NCBI GenBank assembly: GCA_041675085.1
Contig: JBAYUN010000005.1
Coordinates: 1-56,060 of the forward strand
Source of the DNA: Minisyncoccota bacterium
GTDB lineage: Bacteria > Patescibacteriota > Minisyncoccia > Phycocordibacterales > UBA9973
Length of the DNA stretch: 56,060 bases
Direction: 5' to 3'
This document shows positions 11,535 to 56,060 of this stretch, piece after piece. The first letter of the stretch is position 1. Every line of letters begins with the position of its first letter. The notes under the pieces were generated by a model that was not told where the DNA came from, did no database searches, and saw only the letters and a program-made list of their open reading frames with translations. Made by a program: the position numbers and the translations under genes.

Positions 11535-12683
11535 ATGAAAAAATATATAAGAATAATTTATCTAGCTGGTTTTTTGTTTACAATACCGCTAGCACTCACC
11601 TCTTATATTAATTCAAGTCTATTAGAACAATACATACACCAAGACTATGTTGGCTTGTTGTATGTATCTGGCTCTATAGTAGCTATACTAGGCATGCTCA
11701 GAATGCCAAATATCTTGAATCGTTTTGGATTGAGAAAATCTGCTATTATTTTTAGTAGCATATCTTTTCTATCTTTAATTTTTCTATCTTTTAGTAAAAT
11801 CGCAATACTAGTAGTCCCCGCTTTTTTAATTTATTTTATTGTTAACTTTTTTTTGACGGCTATTATCGATATCTTTATTGAAGACTTGTCTTCAAAGCAT
11901 GATATTGGCACCTTTAGAGGATTGTATTTATCACTAGTTAGTATTTCTTGGGTATTGTCCCAAGTTATTTCTGGTAGCATTATAGCTAAAAGCTCATTCT
12001 TAGGTATTTATCTATTCTCTGGTTTATTCATACTTTTAGTTTTAGTATTATTTATCACAAATTTACATAACTTTGTCGATCTGAAATACAAAAAAGTAGC
12101 AGTTAAAAATACTCTAATTAGAGTCTGGAAAAATAAAGACATTTTAAAAATATATTTAATAAATTTAAATCTAAGATTATTTTATTCTTGGATGATTATT
12201 TATATGACTCTATACTTGCACGAAAATATCGGTTTCTCTTTCTCTGAAATAGGTACAATATACGCAATAATGCTCACGCCTTTCGTTTTCTTGTCTTACC
12301 CCTTGGGACATCTGTCTGACAAAATGGGAGAGAAAAAGATGTTGATTTATGGTTTTGTATTTATCACTTTTGCGACTTTGGTTATACCTTTTATAGAGAG
12401 TAAAACGATCTGGTTATTTGCTCTTGTCTTATTTATTTCTCGTATAGGAGCAGCGACAATAGAGGTCATGAGTGAAAGTTATTTTTTCAAAAATATTACT
12501 GAAGAAGACGTAGACGAGATAGCCTTCTTTCGTAATACAGGACCAATGTCTTTCATTATCGGTCCTGCCTTGGCAACTATCTCAATAATATACATACCAG
12601 ACTTCTCATATATTTTCTTTCTCCTAGGAGTGATTCTACTCGTAGGCATGCTGATAGCTTTTAGATTGCGAGATATTAAATAA
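11535..12683 (+). CDS. MFS-type transporter
   Basis: About 12 predicted TM helices over 382 aa, with a central loop. Confidence 0.6.
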   Translation: MKKYIRIIYLAGFLFTIPLALTSYINSSLLEQYIHQDYVGLLYVSGSIVAILGMLRMPNILNRFGLRKSAIIFSSISFLSLIFLSFSKIAILVVPAFLIYFIVNFFLTAIIDIFIEDLSSKHDIGTFRGLYLSLVSISWVLSQVISGSIIAKSSFLGIYLFSGLFILLVLVLFITNLHNFVDLKYKKVAVKNTLIRVWKNKDILKIYLINLNLRLFYSWMIIYMTLYLHENIGFSFSEIGTIYAIMLTPFVFLSYPLGHLSDKMGEKKMLIYGFVFITFATLVIPFIESKTIWLFALVLFISRIGAATIEVMSESYFFKNITEEDVDEIAFFRNTGPMSFIIGPALATISIIYIPDFSYIFFLLGVILLVGMLIAFRLRDIK

Positions 12684-14884: not shown

Positions 14885-15271
14885 TTAACTTAATAAAATA
14901 GCGTAAATTTTAGGCAAGAAAATGATAGATCCGACAACTATTGCCAATACAACTGCCAATAATACAGCCCCTGCGGCTATGTCTTTGGTATCTCTTGCAT
15001 AAGGATGATATTCGGGACTTGTTAAGTCTATATCTACTTCTATGGCTGTATTTATAGTTTCTGTTATCAAGACTATAAAAATAGCAAAGACTAAAGCTAT
15101 CCATTCGAAATGAGAAATATTTAAAATACAACCCAAATAAAGAGCTAGGATACCAAAAAATATTTGAAGCCAAGCATTGTGAGTGGTTTTTAAAACAATA
15201 CCCAAACCTCTAAAAGCGTGGGTCGCACTTTTGATTCGAGCAACGATACTAAATCTTTTATTTTCTTTCAT
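14885..15271 (-). CDS. dgkA: diacylglycerol / undecaprenol kinase (DgkA family)
   Basis: Three TM helices over 128 aa; AFRGL, ETINTAIE and DIAAGAVL blocks. Confidence 0.85.
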   Translation of the reverse strand: MKENKRFSIVARIKSATHAFRGLGIVLKTTHNAWLQIFFGILALYLGCILNISHFEWIALVFAIFIVLITETINTAIEVDIDLTSPEYHPYARDTKDIAAGAVLLAVVLAIVVGSIIFLPKIYAILLS

Positions 15272-15392
15272 CCCGTTAAATATTTTTAATTAATTTATAA
15301 TTATATTGCAAATTCTTTTACTCTGATTACGTAAATTTATATATGCCCGCTATTTAAAATATTTAACGGGATTCATAAATAAATTATAACAT
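15272..15392 (-). promoter_or_regulatory. conserved uORF leader module, copy 1 (upstream of dgkA)
   Basis: Extended -10 TGTTATAAT (15391-15383), uORF 15376-15350, a 78-nt spacer, then TTAACGGG abutting the dgkA ATG. Same module as at 27961-28099 and 37245-37365. Confidence 0.55.
15350..15376 (-). CDS. 8-codon upstream ORF MNPVKYFK
   Basis: ATG AAT CCC GTT AAA TAT TTT AAA TAG. The ATG lies 6 nt after TATAAT. An identical copy is at 27997-28023 and a frame-preserving variant at 37261-37287. Confidence 0.4.
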   Translation of the reverse strand: MNPVKYFK

Positions 15393-27754: not shown

Positions 27755-27790
27755 AAACCACTCTATTTAGATGAGTGGTTTTTGTTTTAG
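27755..27790 (-). terminator. intrinsic terminator
   Basis: CCACTC/GAGTGG stem flanked by A/T runs. Confidence 0.55.
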
Positions 27791-27960
27791 ATTATTTAGC
27801 TTTTACTTTTTTTGGTTTCTTTACTTCTTTTCTTTGACTATTGTTTCCTTTTGCCATAAATTTAAATTAAAATTTTATTTATGATTAATATTCGACTATT
27901 TCTATAAATATATAATATTATATTTAATAAATAATACAAGCTTAGAATATAATAAAAAGG

Positions 27961-28099
27961 TGTATAATAATAGTATTACAAATAAATGAAAATTTTATGA
28001 ATCCCGTTAAATATTTTAAATAGCGTGGTTACATAATATAATGTTATTAGGTCAATAATATTTAATAAAATTAAAAATTAATCAAAAATAATTAACGGG
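27961..28099 (+). promoter_or_regulatory. conserved uORF leader module, copy 2 (upstream of the 2-TM protein and pgl-gnd-zwf)
   Basis: TGTATAAT 27961-27968, uORF 27997-28023, a 76-nt spacer, then TTAACGGG 28092-28099 abutting the ATG at 28100. Confidence 0.55.
27997..28023 (+). CDS. 8-codon upstream ORF MNPVKYFK
   Basis: The 27 nt are identical to the copy at 15376-15350. Confidence 0.4.
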   Translation: MNPVKYFK

Positions 28100-28579
28100 A
28101 TGAAAAATAAATTAAAGATTGTAGGAATGACTAGCGGTATTATAGGATTTGCATTAGTGATAATCGGGATCTGGGCTATGGTTTTTACTTATAGTAACGT
28201 AAGTAGAGAAAATATAATTACTGGAGAGGATGCGTCTATTCCAAACACAAAAGTTGCCGGACCATTAACTCTAAAATCTCAAGCGGACATAATCCGTGAA
28301 CATACACTAAAAATCACACAAGGTAAGACTTATGCAGAAATGCCAAGACAAATACCAAAATTGGATACAGATGGCAAAGAAATTTTAAATGAAAAAGGAG
28401 AAGTAGTATTAGTCGATAACGTGGCTCGTAATACTTGGATAACTGCTACTACGCTCACCACATCTATAAATCTCGCTTTACTGGCATATGGATTATCTCT
28501 ACTAACTATTCTTTTTGGCATATTGTCTATTTCAAACGGCTATATTTTCTGTGAGTTATCTAAGAAAGAAAATAATTAA
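28100..28579 (+). CDS. two-TM membrane protein, function unknown
   Basis: TM helices at both ends with an extracytoplasmic middle (GPLTLKSQADIIREHTL). Confidence 0.55.
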   Translation: MKNKLKIVGMTSGIIGFALVIIGIWAMVFTYSNVSRENIITGEDASIPNTKVAGPLTLKSQADIIREHTLKITQGKTYAEMPRQIPKLDTDGKEILNEKGEVVLVDNVARNTWITATTLTTSINLALLAYGLSLLTILFGILSISNGYIFCELSKKENN

Positions 28580-28583
28580 TTTT

Positions 28584-29246
28584 ATGGAAATTAAAAATAC
28601 TATTGAGATAGAAAAAGTTGCAGAATTTATCTCAGGAAAAATTCTAAACAAGCTAGAAAATAATATCAAAGTCTTGTGGTTTGTTACCGGTGGATCAGGT
28701 ATCGAAGTAGCGTCGAAAGTTTCTCAAATCATCACAAAGAGACCTCATGCAAATCTTACGATAATGCTGACCGATGAAAGATATGGTGATGTTGACTCGG
28801 CTCAATCAAATTGGCATCAATTATTAGAATTAGGCTTTGTATTACCAGAAGCAAAATTGATACCAATATTAAATAATAAAAACAGAAAAGACACTACTAT
28901 AGAATTTCAAGAAAATTTAGAAAAATATTTAAATAGCACAGTCTATAAGATTGGTCTTTTTGGAGTTGGAGCTGATGGTCATACTGCAGGAATACTACCT
29001 GAGAGTGAAGCTACAAATTCTACAAACTTAGCTTATGAATATGATACTCCCCAATTTGAAAGAATCACAATGACGCCTAGAGCCATAAAGATGCTAGATG
29101 AAATAATCGTCTTTATGAAAGGTGAAGCAAAATGGATAGTGGTGAACGATTTATTAAATAAAGAAATCGATATTAAAAAACAACCAGCCCAGATATTAAA
29201 ACAAATTCCATTATTAACAATATTTACTGATTATCAAAATAAATAA
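28584..29246 (+). CDS. pgl: 6-phosphogluconolactonase
   Basis: GGSG, LTDERYG and FGVGADGHTAGILP blocks. ATG at 28584 (MEIKNT). Confidence 0.75.
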   Translation: MEIKNTIEIEKVAEFISGKILNKLENNIKVLWFVTGGSGIEVASKVSQIITKRPHANLTIMLTDERYGDVDSAQSNWHQLLELGFVLPEAKLIPILNNKNRKDTTIEFQENLEKYLNSTVYKIGLFGVGADGHTAGILPESEATNSTNLAYEYDTPQFERITMTPRAIKMLDEIIVFMKGEAKWIVVNDLLNKEIDIKKQPAQILKQIPLLTIFTDYQNK

Positions 29247-29256
29247 AAATAAATAT

Positions 29257-30159
29257 ATGAAAATAGCAATAATAGGTTTAGGGAAAATGGGAGGACAAAT
29301 AGCTCGGAAATTACATGAAGCAAATTTTACCGTCATAGCTCACAATAGTAGCGTTGAACCAATAGAAGAAATGAAAGCTTTAGGTATGGTTCCTGCTTAT
29401 ACTAAAGAAGAAGTTGCAAGTTCTTTTATGAGTGAGCAAGTCGTATTATGGCTTATGATACCTTCAGATATAGTAGATACAGAATTAGATCTTTGGCTAT
29501 CACTAGTTCCAAAAGGTAGCATTATTATAGATGGTGGTAATTCTGATTTTAGACTCACTCGGGAAAGAGCAAAGAAAGTTCTAAGTGCAGGCTCAATACT
29601 ATTAGATGTTGGTACTAGTGGAGGTATTTGGGGATATAAAAATGGTTTTGCTATGATGGCCGGAGGAGATAAAGATGCTTTTCTAAAAGTAGAAGAAGTT
29701 TTAAAGACCCTAGCACTTCCAGAAGGGGGATATCATCATTTTGGAGAAAGTGGTGGGGGCCATTACGTGAAGATGGTACACAACGCTATAGAATACGGAA
29801 TGATGCAAAGTCTAGCTGAAGGCTATCGTATGTTAAAAGAAGGACCATACAAAAATTTAGATTTAGCTAGTGCAGGAGAAGTCTGGCAACATCATAGTGT
29901 TATTACTTCTTGGCTAAATGAACTCTGTAGAGATGCCCTGAAAGAAAATCCAGAATTAAATGGGATAGATGGATTCGTGGCTGAATCGGGTGAAGCACGC
30001 TGGGCTTTAGAATCGGCTAAAGAATCAGGCATCCCTACCCCAGCGATACAATCTGCTTTTGATGTAAGACTAGCTTCTCAAAAAGGTGAAGTTAACTTTG
30101 CTACTAAATTACTAGCTGCAATGCGTAATGCTTTTGGTGGACACAAAATCAATAAATAA
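29257..30159 (+). CDS. gnd: 6-phosphogluconate dehydrogenase (decarboxylating), short ~300-aa form
   Basis: MKIAIIGLGKMGGQIA Rossmann start, GGNS and HYVKMVHNAIEYGMMQ blocks. Confidence 0.85.
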   Translation: MKIAIIGLGKMGGQIARKLHEANFTVIAHNSSVEPIEEMKALGMVPAYTKEEVASSFMSEQVVLWLMIPSDIVDTELDLWLSLVPKGSIIIDGGNSDFRLTRERAKKVLSAGSILLDVGTSGGIWGYKNGFAMMAGGDKDAFLKVEEVLKTLALPEGGYHHFGESGGGHYVKMVHNAIEYGMMQSLAEGYRMLKEGPYKNLDLASAGEVWQHHSVITSWLNELCRDALKENPELNGIDGFVAESGEARWALESAKESGIPTPAIQSAFDVRLASQKGEVNFATKLLAAMRNAFGGHKINK

Positions 30160-31338
30160 ATGAAACAAAATCCCCTAATCCTAATAATCTTTGGTGTATC
30201 CGGCGATCTCATTCGACGATATGTCTTGCCTGCGGTTATAGAATTGGATAATAAGAAAAAATTACCAAATAAATTTAAGGTTCTAGGTATCACTCGTAAA
30301 ATAAATTTAAATATTGAAGAAATATTAAATAAAGACATTCCAAAAAAATATAAAAAAAATCATGAAGAAATATATTCTATGGATGTAAATGATATCAAGT
30401 CATATCCTGGATTAAATCAAAAAATAGAAGATATAGAAAATAACTGGGGAGAGAAAGCGGAGATCATATTTTATCTTTCCCTACCACCTCAAATTTCTAC
30501 ACAAATACTAAAAAATTTAGGTCAAAATGATTTTCTTAAAAAAAGAAAAATAAAACTTCTGATTGAAAAACCTTTCGGCATAGATTTACAAAGTGCAAAA
30601 AAACAAATATCCTTCACTTTAAAATATTTCAAAGAAAGTCAGATATATCGAGTAGATCATTATCTTTTTAAGAAGATAGTTTCAAAAATTACTTCTTTTA
30701 CAGAAAAAAATCAGTTAAACAATAATACTATAGAAAGTATTGAAATAAATGCACTCGAAGAAATAGATATTGGAAAAAGAATTGATTTTTATGAAAAAGT
30801 AGGTGCAATAAAAGACATGATACAAAGTCACCTTTTAGAATTAACAGCTCTTGTTCTAAAAGATTCTAAAGATAGTAAAAATCTAAATCAAGCCCGATAC
30901 AATGCATTAAAAAATCTAGAATTAATAAAAGAAAACACCAAAAAAGGTCAGTATGAAGGATACATAAATAAAGACATAAATCCAAATAGTCAGACCGAAA
31001 CTTTGGCCTCAATAACTCTCAAATCGAAAAACAAAAATCTAAACAAAATAAATATTATTCTAAATACAGGTAAAGCCTTAGCTAAAAAAGAAACTTTCAT
31101 AAAAATAAAATACCAAAACAAAAAAGTATTTTTTATAAAAGAAAAAATAGACAAAAAACATAATTCTTATGAAGATGTGATATTAAATGCTATTAATTCC
31201 AAAAAAGATTATTTTGTTTCTCAGAAAGAAGTATTAGAAACATGGAGAATAATAGACCCAATCATAAAACCTTCAAGAAAACACAATAAAGATTTAATTA
31301 TTTACAAAAAAGATAGCAAATTAGAAGAGATATTGTAA
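30160..31338 (+). CDS. zwf: glucose-6-phosphate dehydrogenase homolog (short, divergent)
   Basis: IFGVSGDLIRRYVLPA, EKPFG and RVDHYLFK signature blocks. Only 392 aa; starts immediately after the gnd stop. Confidence 0.7.
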   Translation: MKQNPLILIIFGVSGDLIRRYVLPAVIELDNKKKLPNKFKVLGITRKINLNIEEILNKDIPKKYKKNHEEIYSMDVNDIKSYPGLNQKIEDIENNWGEKAEIIFYLSLPPQISTQILKNLGQNDFLKKRKIKLLIEKPFGIDLQSAKKQISFTLKYFKESQIYRVDHYLFKKIVSKITSFTEKNQLNNNTIESIEINALEEIDIGKRIDFYEKVGAIKDMIQSHLLELTALVLKDSKDSKNLNQARYNALKNLELIKENTKKGQYEGYINKDINPNSQTETLASITLKSKNKNLNKINIILNTGKALAKKETFIKIKYQNKKVFFIKEKIDKKHNSYEDVILNAINSKKDYFVSQKEVLETWRIIDPIIKPSRKHNKDLIIYKKDSKLEEIL

Positions 31339-31399
31339 TTATTTTTTTATTAAAACATAGTATAATTACTATATTAATAGGTAAGATAATTTCATATTT

Positions 31400-32620
31400 A
31401 TGCAAAACCCATTTCAAAATGCTATGTCTCAATTAGACAAGGTAGTAAGTATCAAGAACTTTAATACTGAATTCATATCGAGTTTAAGGCAACCAAATCG
31501 AGATATTAGGATATCTATCCCGGTATCTATGGACGACGGCTCTGTGCGTATTTTTGAAGGTTATAGAGTGCAATACAATGACGTCTTGGGACCATATAAA
31601 GGTGGAATTCGTTATCACGCTGAGACTGAGATAAATGAAGTTAAGGCTTTAGCTTTTTGGATGACTATCAAATGTGCCGTCGCTGGGATACCTATGGGCG
31701 GAGGTAAAGGAGGTATCACCGTGAGCCCAAAAGAATTATCTAAAAATGAACTCGAGAGACTTTCTCGAGGTTGGGTTCGTAGAATGTATGAAGTCATCGG
31801 ACCGCAAAAAGACGTCCCTGCTCCAGATGTGAATACTACCGGGGAAATCATGAATTGGATGAATGATGAATATCAAAAATTAAGTGGCGAGAAAACTTCT
31901 GCTACTTTTACAGGTAAACCTCTCACAGAAGGCGGTTCAGAAGGACGCGAGAGTGCTACGGGTTTGGGAGGATTTTATGTATTCAAAACTCTACAAGAGA
32001 AATTGAATCTACCCGAAAAATGCACTGTCGCTATTCAAGGATTTGGCAACGTAGGATCTTTTGCTATGAAAAGTTTTATCGAAGACGGCCATAAGGTTAT
32101 AGCTATTTCAGATTCTAAAGGCGGACTCTATAAACAAGAAGGTTTTACCCTAGAGGAAATAGAGAATCATAAAAAGACAAATGGTCGTCTTGCTGACTAC
32201 CCTACTGCACAAAATATTAGTAATGAAGAATTATTAGAATTAGAATGCGACGTACTTGTACCGGCTGCTTTCGAGAATCAGATCACTGACAAAAACGCTC
32301 ACAATATAAAAGCTAAAGTTGTTTTAGAATTAGCTAACGGTCCGACTACTCCAGAAGCAGATGAGATTCTGAATAGTAAAAATATTCCTGTGGTGCCCGA
32401 CGTGCTTGCGAACTCTGGCGGAGTGACAGTATCTTCTTTTGAATGGGAGCAGAACCTCAAAAATGAGCATTGGACCGAAATAGAAGTAAATGAAAAATTA
32501 AATAATATCCTAAAAGACTCTGCAAATAAAATATTTGATATTTCTGTTGAAAATAAAACCACCCTCAGAAACAGTGCCTTCATCTTAGCACTCCTAAGAA
32601 TACAAGAAAAAATTAAATAA
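31400..32620 (+). CDS. gdhA: glutamate dehydrogenase
   Basis: GPYKGGIRYH, KCAVAGIPMGGGKGG and GFGNVG blocks. Confidence 0.9.
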   Translation: MQNPFQNAMSQLDKVVSIKNFNTEFISSLRQPNRDIRISIPVSMDDGSVRIFEGYRVQYNDVLGPYKGGIRYHAETEINEVKALAFWMTIKCAVAGIPMGGGKGGITVSPKELSKNELERLSRGWVRRMYEVIGPQKDVPAPDVNTTGEIMNWMNDEYQKLSGEKTSATFTGKPLTEGGSEGRESATGLGGFYVFKTLQEKLNLPEKCTVAIQGFGNVGSFAMKSFIEDGHKVIAISDSKGGLYKQEGFTLEEIENHKKTNGRLADYPTAQNISNEELLELECDVLVPAAFENQITDKNAHNIKAKVVLELANGPTTPEADEILNSKNIPVVPDVLANSGGVTVSSFEWEQNLKNEHWTEIEVNEKLNNILKDSANKIFDISVENKTTLRNSAFILALLRIQEKIK

Positions 32621-36334: not shown

Positions 36335-37210
36335 TTAATCTTTTTTCATGAAAATATCCAATTCCCCTTCTAACACATCTTCTATCTGTGAAGTCTCGAC
36401 GTCAGTCCTATGATCTTTGACCATCTTGTACGGATGCATTACATACGAGCGGATTTGATTCCCCCATTCTATACTAGTACCTTTACTTATTTTCATACTT
36501 TCCTCAAAAGTCTTTTTCTCATTTTGAGCTTTTTGGAAAATCTTGGCTCTCAAGATATTCATAGCTCTTTCTCTGTTTGCTTCTTGAGAACGCTCGCCGG
36601 TCGCATGGACCGAGATATTCGTCGGGATATGTATTATCCGCACAGCTGTCTCTCTCTTGTTCACGTTCTGACCACCAGGACCACCAGACTTTGCGAATTC
36701 TACTTTAAGATCAGCAAGAGGTATCTCAAAATCACGCTCATCAAGTTTTGAAAATTTAGGAAGTACTTCGACTAGAGAGAAAGAGGTGTGGCGTAATTTC
36801 TTGGCATTAAATGGAGAGATGCGTACTAATCTATGCACGCCACCTTCATTTTTTAAAAGTCCGTACGCTCGCGGACCTTCAACTTCAAAAGAAATATTAC
36901 GATAGCCGCCGTGCTCATTTTTATTCTCATGAATTAGAAAAATATTCCAACCTTTTTTATTAGCGTATTTCAAGTACATAGAAAATAAAATACTAGAGAA
37001 ATCCTCGGCGTCGTCGCCTCCCGCTCCAGATATGATAGATACTATAGCCGAACCTTTATCCCATTTATTAGACCCTTCGCGTTTGTCTTTCAAGTCTTGT
37101 ATTTCTTTTATGACGCGTTGAGCTTCATTTTTATCAAGCCAAAAGTCAGGCAATAGTATTAAAGCTTCAAGCCTTTCTATTTCTTGGTTTATATTTTCAT
37201 TATCTTCCAT
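36335..37210 (-). CDS. prfB: peptide chain release factor 2 (short form, no frameshift site)
   Basis: SPF motif (RISPFNAKK) and GGQ motif (SGGPGGQNVNK); PDFW near the N-terminus. Only 291 aa. Confidence 0.85.
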   Translation of the reverse strand: MEDNENINQEIERLEALILLPDFWLDKNEAQRVIKEIQDLKDKREGSNKWDKGSAIVSIISGAGGDDAEDFSSILFSMYLKYANKKGWNIFLIHENKNEHGGYRNISFEVEGPRAYGLLKNEGGVHRLVRISPFNAKKLRHTSFSLVEVLPKFSKLDERDFEIPLADLKVEFAKSGGPGGQNVNKRETAVRIIHIPTNISVHATGERSQEANRERAMNILRAKIFQKAQNEKKTFEESMKISKGTSIEWGNQIRSYVMHPYKMVKDHRTDVETSQIEDVLEGELDIFMKKD

Positions 37211-37244: not shown

Positions 37245-37365
37245 TGCTATAATATATATTATGAATCCCGTTAAGTCTTTTAAATAACGGGAATGAGTAA
37301 ATACAAGTAATTAGCAAATAATAACATGTAGTATAATTATCAATTAATCAAAAATATTTAACGGG
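37245..37365 (+). promoter_or_regulatory. conserved uORF leader module, copy 3 (upstream of the VIT1-family gene)
   Basis: TGCTATAAT 37245-37253, uORF 37261-37287, a 78-nt spacer, then TTAACGGG 37358-37365 abutting the ATG at 37366. Confidence 0.55.
37261..37287 (+). CDS. 8-codon upstream ORF MNPVKSFK
   Basis: ATG AAT CCC GTT AAG TCT TTT AAA TAA. The ATG lies 7 nt after TATAAT. Confidence 0.4.
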   Translation: MNPVKSFK

Positions 37366-37875
37366 ATGAAAAAAAGAGTAGCAAAATATATTGGGGATTT
37401 AGTTTATGGAGCAAATGACGGCATTATAACGACTTTCGCTATCGTAGCTGGAGTCGCGGGAGCGAATTTGTCTCCTGCGGTGGTTATCATTTTAGGTATT
37501 TCAAACGTACTCGCTGACGGTTTCTCTATGGCCTCGTCAAACTACCTCGCTCGTAAATCTGAAAAAGATTATCTAGATAATATCGGCAAAGAAGGCGGAG
37601 AAATAAACAATCCACTTAAAAATGCAGTAGTCACCTTTGTCGCGTTTATTCTCGCTGGATCTATCCCCCTCGTACCATACGTATTTGGAGTTAAAGAAAA
37701 TGTATTTAATTATGCTATCTTAGCAACCACAGTAGCATTATTTACCGTCGGGAGTTTAAGAGCGAGAGTCACAGGAATGAATTGGATCAAAGCTGGACTG
37801 GAAATGCTTTTCGTTGGAGCCTTAGCTGCAGGAGTCGCCTACTTTATCGGCCGCGCATTGAGTTATTTAATTTAA
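37366..37875 (+). CDS. VIT1/CCC1-family iron/manganese transporter
   Basis: YGANDGIITTFAIVAGVAGA and LADGFSMA blocks over five TM helices. Confidence 0.8.
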   Translation: MKKRVAKYIGDLVYGANDGIITTFAIVAGVAGANLSPAVVIILGISNVLADGFSMASSNYLARKSEKDYLDNIGKEGGEINNPLKNAVVTFVAFILAGSIPLVPYVFGVKENVFNYAILATTVALFTVGSLRARVTGMNWIKAGLEMLFVGALAAGVAYFIGRALSYLI

Positions 37876-54909: not shown

Positions 54910-55021
<112 letters not shown>

Positions 55022-55171
55022 TGAAAACTCGATTAGAAGAATTTTTACAAAATTTTTTAAAACTTCGCCCTCGGAGTCATAAAGACAGGGGACCCACGTT
55101 TTTTAAAATTTTATAAAAATTCTTTTTAATTTAAAGTCTTGCGACTAATATATAACAAATATATTTTGTGG

Positions 55172-56060
55172 TTTACAAATTTCTTAACAGGAATCGAAAC
55201 ATTAGTACTTCTCAGCTAATACATTACTGTATTTACACTTAAAGCCTATCAACCTGATCATCTCTCAGGGTTCTAATAACGATTCCTAATCTTGAAGCTG
55301 GCTTCCCTCTTAGATGCTTTCAGAGGTTATCCATTCCCGACATAGCTACCGAGCAGTCCAGTTGGCACTAGAGCTCGTACACCAGAGGTCAGTTCACCCC
55401 GGTCCTCTCGTACTAGGGGCAAATCTTCTCAAGAATCAACGAGTGCAGTAGATAGGAGACCAACCTGTCTCACGCAAAATGTTTTATATCAAACTCTCAT
55501 CTACAAGAGCAGAACCTTTATTACTAAAGGGATCGGACTGTGACTTTAACTTACAAAATAAGTTATCTAACATTCAGTCTCTACGGGCATCTCTTAAAGA
55601 GAATTCCCTCGGCGTTATCCTTTGTTTTCACAAATAGGATTTCTCCGATATAAGTTAGCTTCTCGTATTGTATTACTACAATACGCCGCCGTGATGTGTA
55701 TTTTTCAACACATGGTTGTTTTCAGTTTTATATGAGCACTTACGTCTCATATATTTTCTTCGCTCGGACATTATAAAAATAAATTTTTATATGCTCCTCG
55801 CTTGAAAATATAACAGTTCTAATTCATATTCGAATTTGTCTTCCTCGCGGGATTCAGACTGTGAAAAACGCAAAACGCATATCATGCAACTTGTAACAAA
55901 AAGTTATAAGTTTTGATTTATACGCTATACGACCTTCACGGTCTGAACCCAGCTCGCGTACCTTTTTAATTGGCGAACAGCCAAACGCTTGGCAGCTTCT
56001 CCACCGCCGCGCTAAGGTGAGCCGACATCGAGGTGCCGAACTCCGCCGTCGATATGAACT
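55172..56060 (-). rRNA. rrl: 23S rRNA, 3' portion (partial, continues past the right edge), interrupted by an intron
   Basis: The reverse complement contains GGTTCAGACCGT...CGTGAGACAGGTTGGTCTCCTATC, the sarcin-ricin region CTAGTACGAGAGGACCGG and the 3' end AGTACTAATG. Confidence 0.9.
55475..55937 (-). ncRNA. group-I-like intron in 23S rRNA domain V (no ORF)
   Basis: 463 nt split the conserved ...GACCGU | CGUGAGACAG... The 5' exon ends in U and the insert ends in G. R/S-like core GUAGAGACUGAA ... CACAGUCCG gives P7 GACUG/CAGUC. Several GUAA-capped hairpins. Confidence 0.6.

Follow-up and report, generated by a model that had tools for sequence, protein, structure and literature searches.

The best-described systems that resemble the DNA element considered here are the free-standing GIY-YIG endonuclease genes of phage T4 (the seg genes) and fungal mitochondria, small selfish nuclease genes that sit at the edges of host genes and make use of host transcription. 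The fungal examples duplicate the end of the host gene that they displace, keeping that gene intact. In T4, expression of the free-standing endonucleases is limited by RNA hairpins and by translational coupling (PMC2988022), a further likeness to the element. A second point of comparison is provided by the MITEs (miniature inverted-repeat transposable elements) of bacteria such as Correia, RUP and ERIC, which like the element are ~100 bp long, end in inverted repeats, are flanked by a 2-bp duplication, occur in many copies and form mRNA hairpins that alter expression. The element described here is found in three copies in a 56,060-nt stretch of contig JBAYUN010000005.1 (hereafter the window). 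We focus on copy 2, a 101-bp insertion at 28001–28101 on the plus strand, located at the very start of a gene for a predicted membrane protein with two transmembrane segments (the 2-TM gene).

Bacteria of the Candidate Phyla Radiation (CPR) carry GIY-YIG open reading frames (ORFs), not homing-like, in non-intron insertions of their rRNA genes (PMC11270868), and GIY-YIG genes are among those transferred out of Patescibacteria (PMC12455944). In literature searches that included the arm sequences as text, we found no published description of a GIY-YIG element at start codons.

Our interpretation, to which we assign a probability of roughly 0.78, is that copy 2 is a non-autonomous, MITE-like member of a mobile family whose complete form carries an 86-amino acid GIY-YIG nuclease, and that by inference it gates translation of the gene that it entered. 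Taken on its own, the identity of copy 2 as an ORF-less copy of a start-codon-inserting GIY-YIG element is well assured; the specific mechanism of translational coupling, as predicted from RNA folding, is tentative and falls just short of an even bet. An earlier, sequence-only reading of this DNA had described the locus as a regulatory upstream ORF leader. What stands of that account is the presence of a real, repeated 5' module with a short ORF complementary to the region before the main ATG, but the module is not the dedicated regulator of a regulon.

Copy 2 and its empty site

The short ORF of copy 2, ATGAATCCCGTTAAATATTTTAAATAG, occupies 27997–28023 and encodes MNPVKYFK*, just where the sequence-only reading had placed it. 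A spacer of 76 nt (28024–28099) separates it from the main ATG, which is included in TTAACGGGATG at 28092–28102. The identity that had been reported between copies 1 and 2 is confirmed: the same 27-mer recurs exactly at 15350–15376 on the minus strand (copy 1) and, with three mismatches, at 37261–37287 (copy 3), whilst none of 100 shuffles gave a chance match. There are three exact matches to TTAACGGGATG in the window, every one at the ATG of a long ORF, and an nhmmer profile of the window returned exactly three copies and no further, degenerate ones. A site upstream of 4696, considered as a decayed copy, proved to be an ordinary empty site instead. Copy 1 (15268–15376, minus strand) reads ATGA, element, ATGA at the start of dgkA (15271–14885), as does copy 3 (37261–37369, plus strand) at the start of a VIT1-family gene (37366–37875).

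That the module is an insertion is seen most directly at the orthologous locus L010 of the Saccharibacteria metagenome-assembled genome (MAG) CAYNAO01, where the 2-TM orthologue (L010 4159–4635, 67% identical over its full length) is free of it. The empty site has TGGTATAAT, then 29 nt, then ATGAAAAAAC (or ATGAAAAAACAA), the whole reading ATGAAAAA, with the same promoter and leader as in the window. The filled site has TGTATAAT (27961–27968), then 28 nt, then ATGA, the element and ATGAAAAAT; that is, ATGA followed by ATCCCG...CGGGAT and GAAAAATAAA. From this comparison it follows that the short ORF's ATG (27997–27999) is the original 2-TM start codon, with codons 2–8 contributed by the 5' end of the element, that the extended -10 TGTATAAT is the putative native promoter of the 2-TM gene, and that 28001–28101 is an insertion with GA duplicated (27999–28000 on the left, which with the preceding AT makes ATGA, and 28102–28103 on the right). 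The short leader that had been ascribed to the copy 2 ORF behind TGTATAAT is present and has its counterpart in the matching TGGTATAAT of the empty site. The inserted element, ATCCCGTTAA...TTAACGGGAT from arm to arm, has no long ORF, the 8-codon relic being its sole ORF; it belongs to the AT-rich Saccharibacteria subfamily, and its interior is of the same subfamily as those of L009b, L025 and L030, all of which precede different genes.

As the comparison shows, the element entered the 2-TM start codon between ATGA and the next A, duplicating GA. The old ATG now opens an 8-codon relic ORF running across the 5' arm, and the working ATG has been rebuilt from the element's final AT and the duplicated G. 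Four further filled and empty pairs, at pyrG, yceG, a 240-amino acid gene and a 327-amino acid deoxyhypusine-synthase-like gene, have the element in CAYNAO01 and lack it exactly in the window, making five orthologous pairs with copy 2 included.

Relatives were collected by two scans. A genome scan, using one genome per species and a pattern requiring ATG, yielded 30 loci, nearly all from Saccharibacteria, with at least 25 copies in the single MAG CAYNAO01. A metagenome scan, using the arms only and not requiring ATG, yielded at least 120 loci with at least 124 copies (figures given below for metagenome copies refer to the matches listed). The fourth base of the short ORF equals that of the main ORF in 38 of 39 copies (ATGR...ATGR, with the same R): A-type copies all pair A/A, G-type copies (n=10) all pair G/G, and the one exception is ATGT/ATGG. 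This match is independent of interior subfamily. Amongst the metagenome copies, 83 of 124 have ATGN...GN flanks, and N is identical in 79 of the 83. An IS200/IS605-type insertion beside a fixed tetranucleotide was considered and rejected, as the fourth base follows the host second codon regardless of subfamily.

Nuclease-bearing relatives and the reach of the family

A search for more widely spaced arm pairs uncovered two elements of 278–280 bp (L053 and L119), the interiors of which encode a GIY-YIG domain (PF01541, E 3e-15 and 4e-14). Full-length elements of 278–288 bp are now known from six loci (L053, L119, L151, L154, L160 and L168), each with an 86-amino acid GIY-YIG nuclease between the same arms, and the arms flank GIY-YIG genes in CPR metagenomes and in one complete Nomurabacteria genome. 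When arm pairs 0.5–5 kb apart were sought as a larger autonomous element, only the ~280-bp nuclease elements were found. Relatives of the nuclease of ~86 amino acids form more than 1,650 clusters, those with names coming from Terry-, Taylor-, Lloyd-, Kaiser- and Nomurabacteria and from Paceibacterota. The C-terminal LTG is present in 94 of the best 120 family members and an M(N/D)PV(R/K) start in 10. The nearest solved structures are the UPF0213 protein BH0048 (1ZG2, E 1.4e-8) and SLX1 (7WME, E 0.007).

Four of the five full-length copies seen in genomic context lie between ATG(A)+ATCCCGTTAGAG and CTCTAACGGGATGA, and translation from the host ATG can give the full-length nuclease an MNPVRD N-terminus. 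At the other end, the last codons of the nuclease, CTA ACG GGA TGA (LTG-stop), are the 3' arm itself, and in start-codon copies the TGA overlaps the host ATG as ATGA, a 4-nt gene overlap. The genes that follow these copies encode a 67-amino acid protein, a holin-family protein and topoisomerase I. The copy at L168 occupies an intergenic site, where GTA stands to its left, its stop is TAA and the host ATG follows within a few nt; the glycosyltransferase gene there starts 3 nt past the nuclease stop, with no overlap. Since the same arms and reading frame flank a GIY-YIG ORF, the MNPVK... and ...TTAACGGGATGA of the window are the two ends of a nuclease element from which the nuclease is missing.

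To judge from the sequence, the nuclease of the complete element lacks translation signals and depends on the host start, from which it is read either in fusion (MNPVRD...) or behind a very short ORF; ribosomes ending at LTG-TGA, which overlaps the regenerated ATG, can pass on to the host gene. The ORF-less copies were probably moved in trans by the nuclease, which may cut with a short stagger at ATGRA. Copy 2 itself has no GIY-YIG domain and the family no single cognate site, as a homing endonuclease would have. What copy 2 and its relatives do show are the hallmarks of MITEs: they are short and without coding capacity, end in inverted repeats, are flanked by a duplication and are multi-copy with empty sites. 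Group I or bulge-helix-bulge splicing was dismissed, the element being too small, without a conserved core and with boundaries that do not fit. A likeness to the integron attC core (GTTRRRY) was taken as coincidence, the order of the half-sites being reversed and cassette arrays absent. L049 (7264–7659, minus strand) is occupied in tandem, by a diverged GIY-YIG gene of 54% identity and, immediately downstream of it, a short copy of 108 nt, both of them before an 861-amino acid gene.

The arm consensus is ATCCCGTTAGA / TCTAACGGGAT, or ATCCCGTTARA / TYTAACGGGAT overall, with TTAAA / TTTAA as the variant of the AT-rich Saccharibacteria copies. Between the arms lie 36–96 nt of variable sequence, and interior subfamilies are common to different loci. 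The metagenome copies are 60–118 bp long and come from contigs of 29–60% GC, many of them from CPR-rich groundwater size fractions. An ATG is found at the right junction in 111 of 124 and an ORF of at least 60 amino acids downstream in 101 of 124 (~81%), compared with 12% of control ATGRA sites preceding such an ORF. Many of the copies without a left ATG have a decayed left ATG and an intact right one.

The relatives also bear on the proposal that the module is a dedicated cis-regulatory leader, acting through a conserved peptide or as a ligand- or temperature-sensing RNA, of a stress regulon comprising the pentose-phosphate genes, dgkA/dsb and VIT1. All three window copies do lie in operon 5' regions and the start of the short ORF is conserved, but the genes downstream of the relatives are functionally unrelated. 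Those checked against Pfam encode an M16 peptidase, a MazF-like toxin, sigma-54 (rpoN), DnaK, a PfkB kinase, CTP synthase (pyrG), ribosomal protein L15 (rplO), a HIT-family protein, an exonuclease III-like protein (xth) and a deoxyhypusine-synthase-like protein; RNase H, RpiB, aldolase, DprA, TatD and P-type ATPases were recognised by sequence, and topA is also amongst the targets. With such unrelated targets a specific regulon is ruled out, and the only feature common to them is ATGRA, with no single cognate gene. The same targets, together with the empty sites, led us to drop the riboswitch or oxidative-stress regulon that the three window operons had suggested.

Other observations point the same way. 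Orthologues precisely lacking the module and the duplication that flanks the copies are foreign to a dedicated leader, as is an interior with no conserved core. Neither the length nor the stop of the short ORF is conserved, its end falling anywhere from codon 6 to codon 34, and only the codons forced by the arms are kept; the nuclease reading frame explains the peptide. The upstream ORF does overlap a segment that appears, from sequence and folding, complementary to the start, as leader peptides have it, but neither a conserved peptide or stop nor a coherent gene set accompanies it. Rfam searches found nothing at the element, whether in the whole window at gathering score, in 27900–28200 at E values up to 10 or in five related loci, and what is conserved is only the closing helix rather than the core of a riboswitch or other structured RNA. 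The leader proposal is largely refuted by the empty sites and we regard it as very improbable indeed.

Some copies lie outside this core set. A GC-rich subfamily of 70–74 nt (L071 8461–8533, L138, L105, L050, L063, L146 and L056), which occurs in both orientations, has interiors that form nested GC helices, with inter-copy substitutions that look compensatory, and is often found away from start codons; no Rfam family matched L071, L138 or L050. In a Planctomycetaceae MAG (L004 1244–1362, minus strand) the sigma-54 gene has an AT-rich copy at its start, and an Omnitrophica MAG (L023 1653–1768 and 3093–3251) has several copies, one a 159-bp form. Copies outside the CPR suggest either transfer between phyla or mis-binned contigs. 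Four IMG/VR viral contigs (L170–L173) carry short copies, three of them on the ATG of long ORFs.

Arm pairing and translation of the host gene

The two arms of copy 2, the left inverted repeat at 28001–28017 and the right at 28085–28101, form the two strands of a predicted long-range helix. In reverse complement, bases 5–21 of the short ORF (ATCCCGTTAAATATTTT) match the 17-nt segment that runs up to and includes the AT of the main ATG, and the final AT of the right arm provides the first two bases of the working start codon. The helix folds in all three window copies (z-scores -3.1 to -4.0) and in copy 2 is predicted to extend over about 16–17 bp with the main ATG buried. Across 30 AT-rich copies, 96.4% of cells of the 17-pair helix are paired. 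The inverted repeats comprise 11 invariant bases and a further 3–6 complementary ones; the three positions past the invariant 11 are paired in 92–97% of the 124 copies, with all four Watson–Crick pair types represented, compared with 57–63% for shuffled partners.

The 5' arm has a second, weaker partner just past the short-ORF stop (TAACGGG). In copy 2 this is TAGCGTGG (28021–28028), which by folding pairs locally with CCCGTTA of the 5' arm, with one bulge, at a predicted -4.3 kcal/mol; the post-stop complement CGTGG that had been singled out as degenerate is indeed present at 28024–28028. The local hairpin has 89.5% of cells paired, and at its GC/UA pairs (columns 27–29) all 13 changes on the 3' side are G–U compatible. 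The two mutually exclusive pairings open to the 5' arm, together with these 13 of 13 changes, which suggest selection at the RNA level, are features that would suit the dedicated leader discussed above.

When the leader is folded in full, the predicted probability that the main start region (-12 to +3) is unpaired is 0.07–0.16 (0.15 in copy 2), and it rises to 0.69–0.85 (0.85 in copy 2) when the first 30 nt are masked to represent a ribosome on the relic ORF. Under the gating that we propose, the operon mRNA would start at the native promoter and the two arms would form a 16-bp helix burying the main ATG. This helix would be opened by ribosomes on the relic ORF or by the weaker local hairpin, tying 2-TM translation to initiation at the original start codon.

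The setting in which this would operate is a genome with few Shine–Dalgarno (SD) motifs. The window is AT-rich, and its proteins are 72–89% identical to those of an uncultured Saccharibacteria MAG. Only 4 of 52 genes have an SD-like tetramer, and 18 of 52 have a -10-like hexamer ending 5–8 nt before the ATG (for example at 11535, 14864, 15840, 18622, 19786, 45439, 49945 and 54833), an architecture that suggests that leaderless mRNAs are widespread in the Saccharibacteria lineage of the window. In ~20 of 36 related copies a -10 stands at this same distance from the short-ORF ATG, so that in this organism the short-ORF ATG looks like an ordinary gene start. In copy 1, which has a leaderless context, TATAAT lies 6 nt before the relic ATG, and in copy 3 it lies 7 nt before. 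The 3' arm was rejected as an SD site, the genome being essentially without SD motifs. In SD-using hosts, and in three of the four viral contigs, the 3' arm extension contains GGAGG, ~9 nt upstream of the main ATG, with CCTCC in the 5' extension; judging from its placement, this GGAGG may be an adaptation that keeps the host gene translated.

Correia elements of Neisseria are processed by RNase III, and the arm helix of the present element could meet the same fate. Given the same origin, a double-strand-specific RNase such as RNase III might cut the helix, in the manner of an intervening sequence, and leave a leaderless mRNA at the main AUG. A conserved 14–17-bp helix with the main AUG at its foot would suit such processing, as would the near absence of SD sites, the 18 of 52 genes with a leaderless-type -10 and the precedent of CPR rRNA genes whose non-intron insertions carry GIY-YIG ORFs, intervening sequences there being known to be excised without ligation (PMC11270868). 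RNase III substrates are typically longer than this helix, however, and an SD motif in the 3' arm extension of SD-using hosts makes sense only if the segment stays on the translated mRNA. We consider such cleavage improbable.

The sequence-only reading had also pointed to a TAAAAT/TATAAT hexamer close to the main ATG as a second promoter or a conserved RNA segment. The hexamer, TAAAAT in copy 2, does end 28 nt upstream of that ATG in all three window copies, but it occurs in only 7 of 30 related copies and, with promoter scans performing no better than shuffles, an internal promoter does not hold as a family feature, though one may act in copy 2. It is nonetheless central to the possibility that the element is an inert relic, its helix of no meaningful effect and the host gene translated from transcripts that start at this hexamer. 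Matches to promoter consensus are plentiful in this AT-rich DNA, but there are only 7 promoter-like matches against 5.0 +/- 1.9 in shuffles. Moreover, in two orthologous filled pairs the ends are 91–100% identical, with 53–66% for the middle and 42–56% for neighbouring 4-fold sites, placing both ends far above neutral-site conservation, and the 39 AT-rich copies without exception face the same way with respect to the gene, despite their symmetric arms. An inert relic is decidedly improbable. These observations argue that the ends of the element are constrained and that its orientation matters for host-gene expression, but fall short of proof of regulation.

Several points weigh against our interpretation. 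The length of the duplication is ambiguous, 2 bp (or 4 with the terminal AT), and 1 bp (or 3) in ~8 copies. The element ends are too conserved for neutral decay, which points to selection at the locus, repeated re-insertion or gene conversion; two dgkA copies fall in different interior subfamilies, so that re-insertion or conversion is also possible. No GIY-YIG gene was found in the window by tblastn or in 268 kb of Saccharibacteria loci, and hence a partner for the TTAAA arm variant was not seen in those sequences. For the interiors of the short copies, homology to the nuclease ORF is not demonstrable, the likeness residing in the arms. A crude model combining ATGRA preference with loss of intragenic insertions predicts ~36% of copies at gene starts against the ~81% observed, leaving an excess at start codons that it does not explain. 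Finally, the effects proposed at the RNA level rest on folding predictions.

Genomic setting and comparison with known systems

The gene read from the regenerated ATG of copy 2 (28100–28579, plus strand) encodes the 159-amino acid predicted 2-TM protein, for which no Pfam family was matched. It is followed on the same strand by pgl (28584–29246), gnd (29257–30159) and zwf (30160–31338), in agreement with the earlier listing of genes, and then by gdh (31400–32620). The pgl start is most likely ATG 28584, 4 nt past the 2-TM stop, and spacing suggests that the 2-TM gene and pgl-gnd-zwf-gdh are co-transcribed. This ~4-kb block (28584–32620) is present in the window lineage and lacking in the related MAG, and is therefore an indel; there, in the corresponding stretch (L010 4636–4690), the 2-TM gene is followed by a terminator hairpin and then directly by pyrG. 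The strand of the block is opposite to that of most window genes. Copy 1 heads the order dgkA, thioredoxin-like gene, dsbB, and copy 3 heads the VIT1-family gene.

On the minus strand at 27804–27866 is a tiny, strongly basic ORF of 20 amino acids, MAKGNNSQRKEVKKPKKVKA, with a hairpin after it at ~27755–27785; L010 has a conserved counterpart, MAKGNNSQRKEVKKPKKAKVKAK, likewise upstream of yceG. Elsewhere in the window, the 5' part of the 16S gene lies at 1–553 and the 3' part of the 23S gene, with 5S, at 54912–56060, all on the minus strand. Either these rRNA genes are unlinked, with at least 54 kb between them, or the contig goes round a small replicon. An ORF resembling release factor 2 (RF2) at 36335–37210 (minus strand) has 291 amino acids only and, set against the E. 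coli sequence, seems to begin past the usual RF2 programmed-frameshift region.

Should the reading of copy 2 extend to the family as a whole, which we put forward tentatively, there would exist a class of mobile element specialised for start codons, the nuclease of which borrows the host start and the ORF-less derivatives of which place hairpin gates on several per cent of genes in some SD-less Saccharibacteria that lean strongly on leaderless translation, with a spread across the CPR, other phyla and phages. Such elements have consequences for annotation, in that MNPV(K/R) mini-ORFs and 86–95-amino acid 'excinuclease ABC subunit C' calls in the CPR should not be read as host functions. They would exemplify a strategy by which selfish DNA can live in gene-dense genomes, occupying a start codon that can be rebuilt and using host initiation signals. 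They also provide a natural experiment in which a defined hairpin is placed on the starts of essential genes (dnaK, pyrG, topA and rplO), useful for the study of internal AUG initiation without SD motifs, and the 86-amino acid nuclease, with its apparent ATGRA target, is small enough for direct testing.

How, then, does the element compare with systems already described? Its arrangement recalls ermC-type leaders and the fold-back inhibition of IS10, in which an upstream ORF or segment is complementary to a downstream start and the passage of ribosomes decides whether this opens. Unlike these, the element has no evident stalling signal or inducer, and the arrangement is a by-product of the inverted repeats that appears before unrelated genes. 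An analogy may also be drawn with eukaryotic introners, where element ends and duplicated bases likewise recreate a needed signal (splice sites there, a start codon here), but the two differ in domain of life, in enzyme and in signal. Amongst solved structures the nuclease is nearest to the UPF0213, YhbQ and SLX1 branch, single-domain proteins of similar size; those are regarded as cellular repair or structure-specific nucleases, and neither mobility nor flanking inverted repeats are known for them.

Set beside the seg-type genes, the nuclease of the element is an 86-amino acid catalytic domain with no DNA-binding domain, and the element differs in having inverted-repeat arms, a short duplication and ORF-less derivatives, and in occupying the start codons of hundreds of unrelated genes instead of a single cognate allele. 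The known bacterial MITEs, for their part, derive from DDE insertion sequences and are found anywhere between genes, whereas the present element is associated with a GIY-YIG nuclease, inserts at the start codon and restores the ATG from its own terminal AT.

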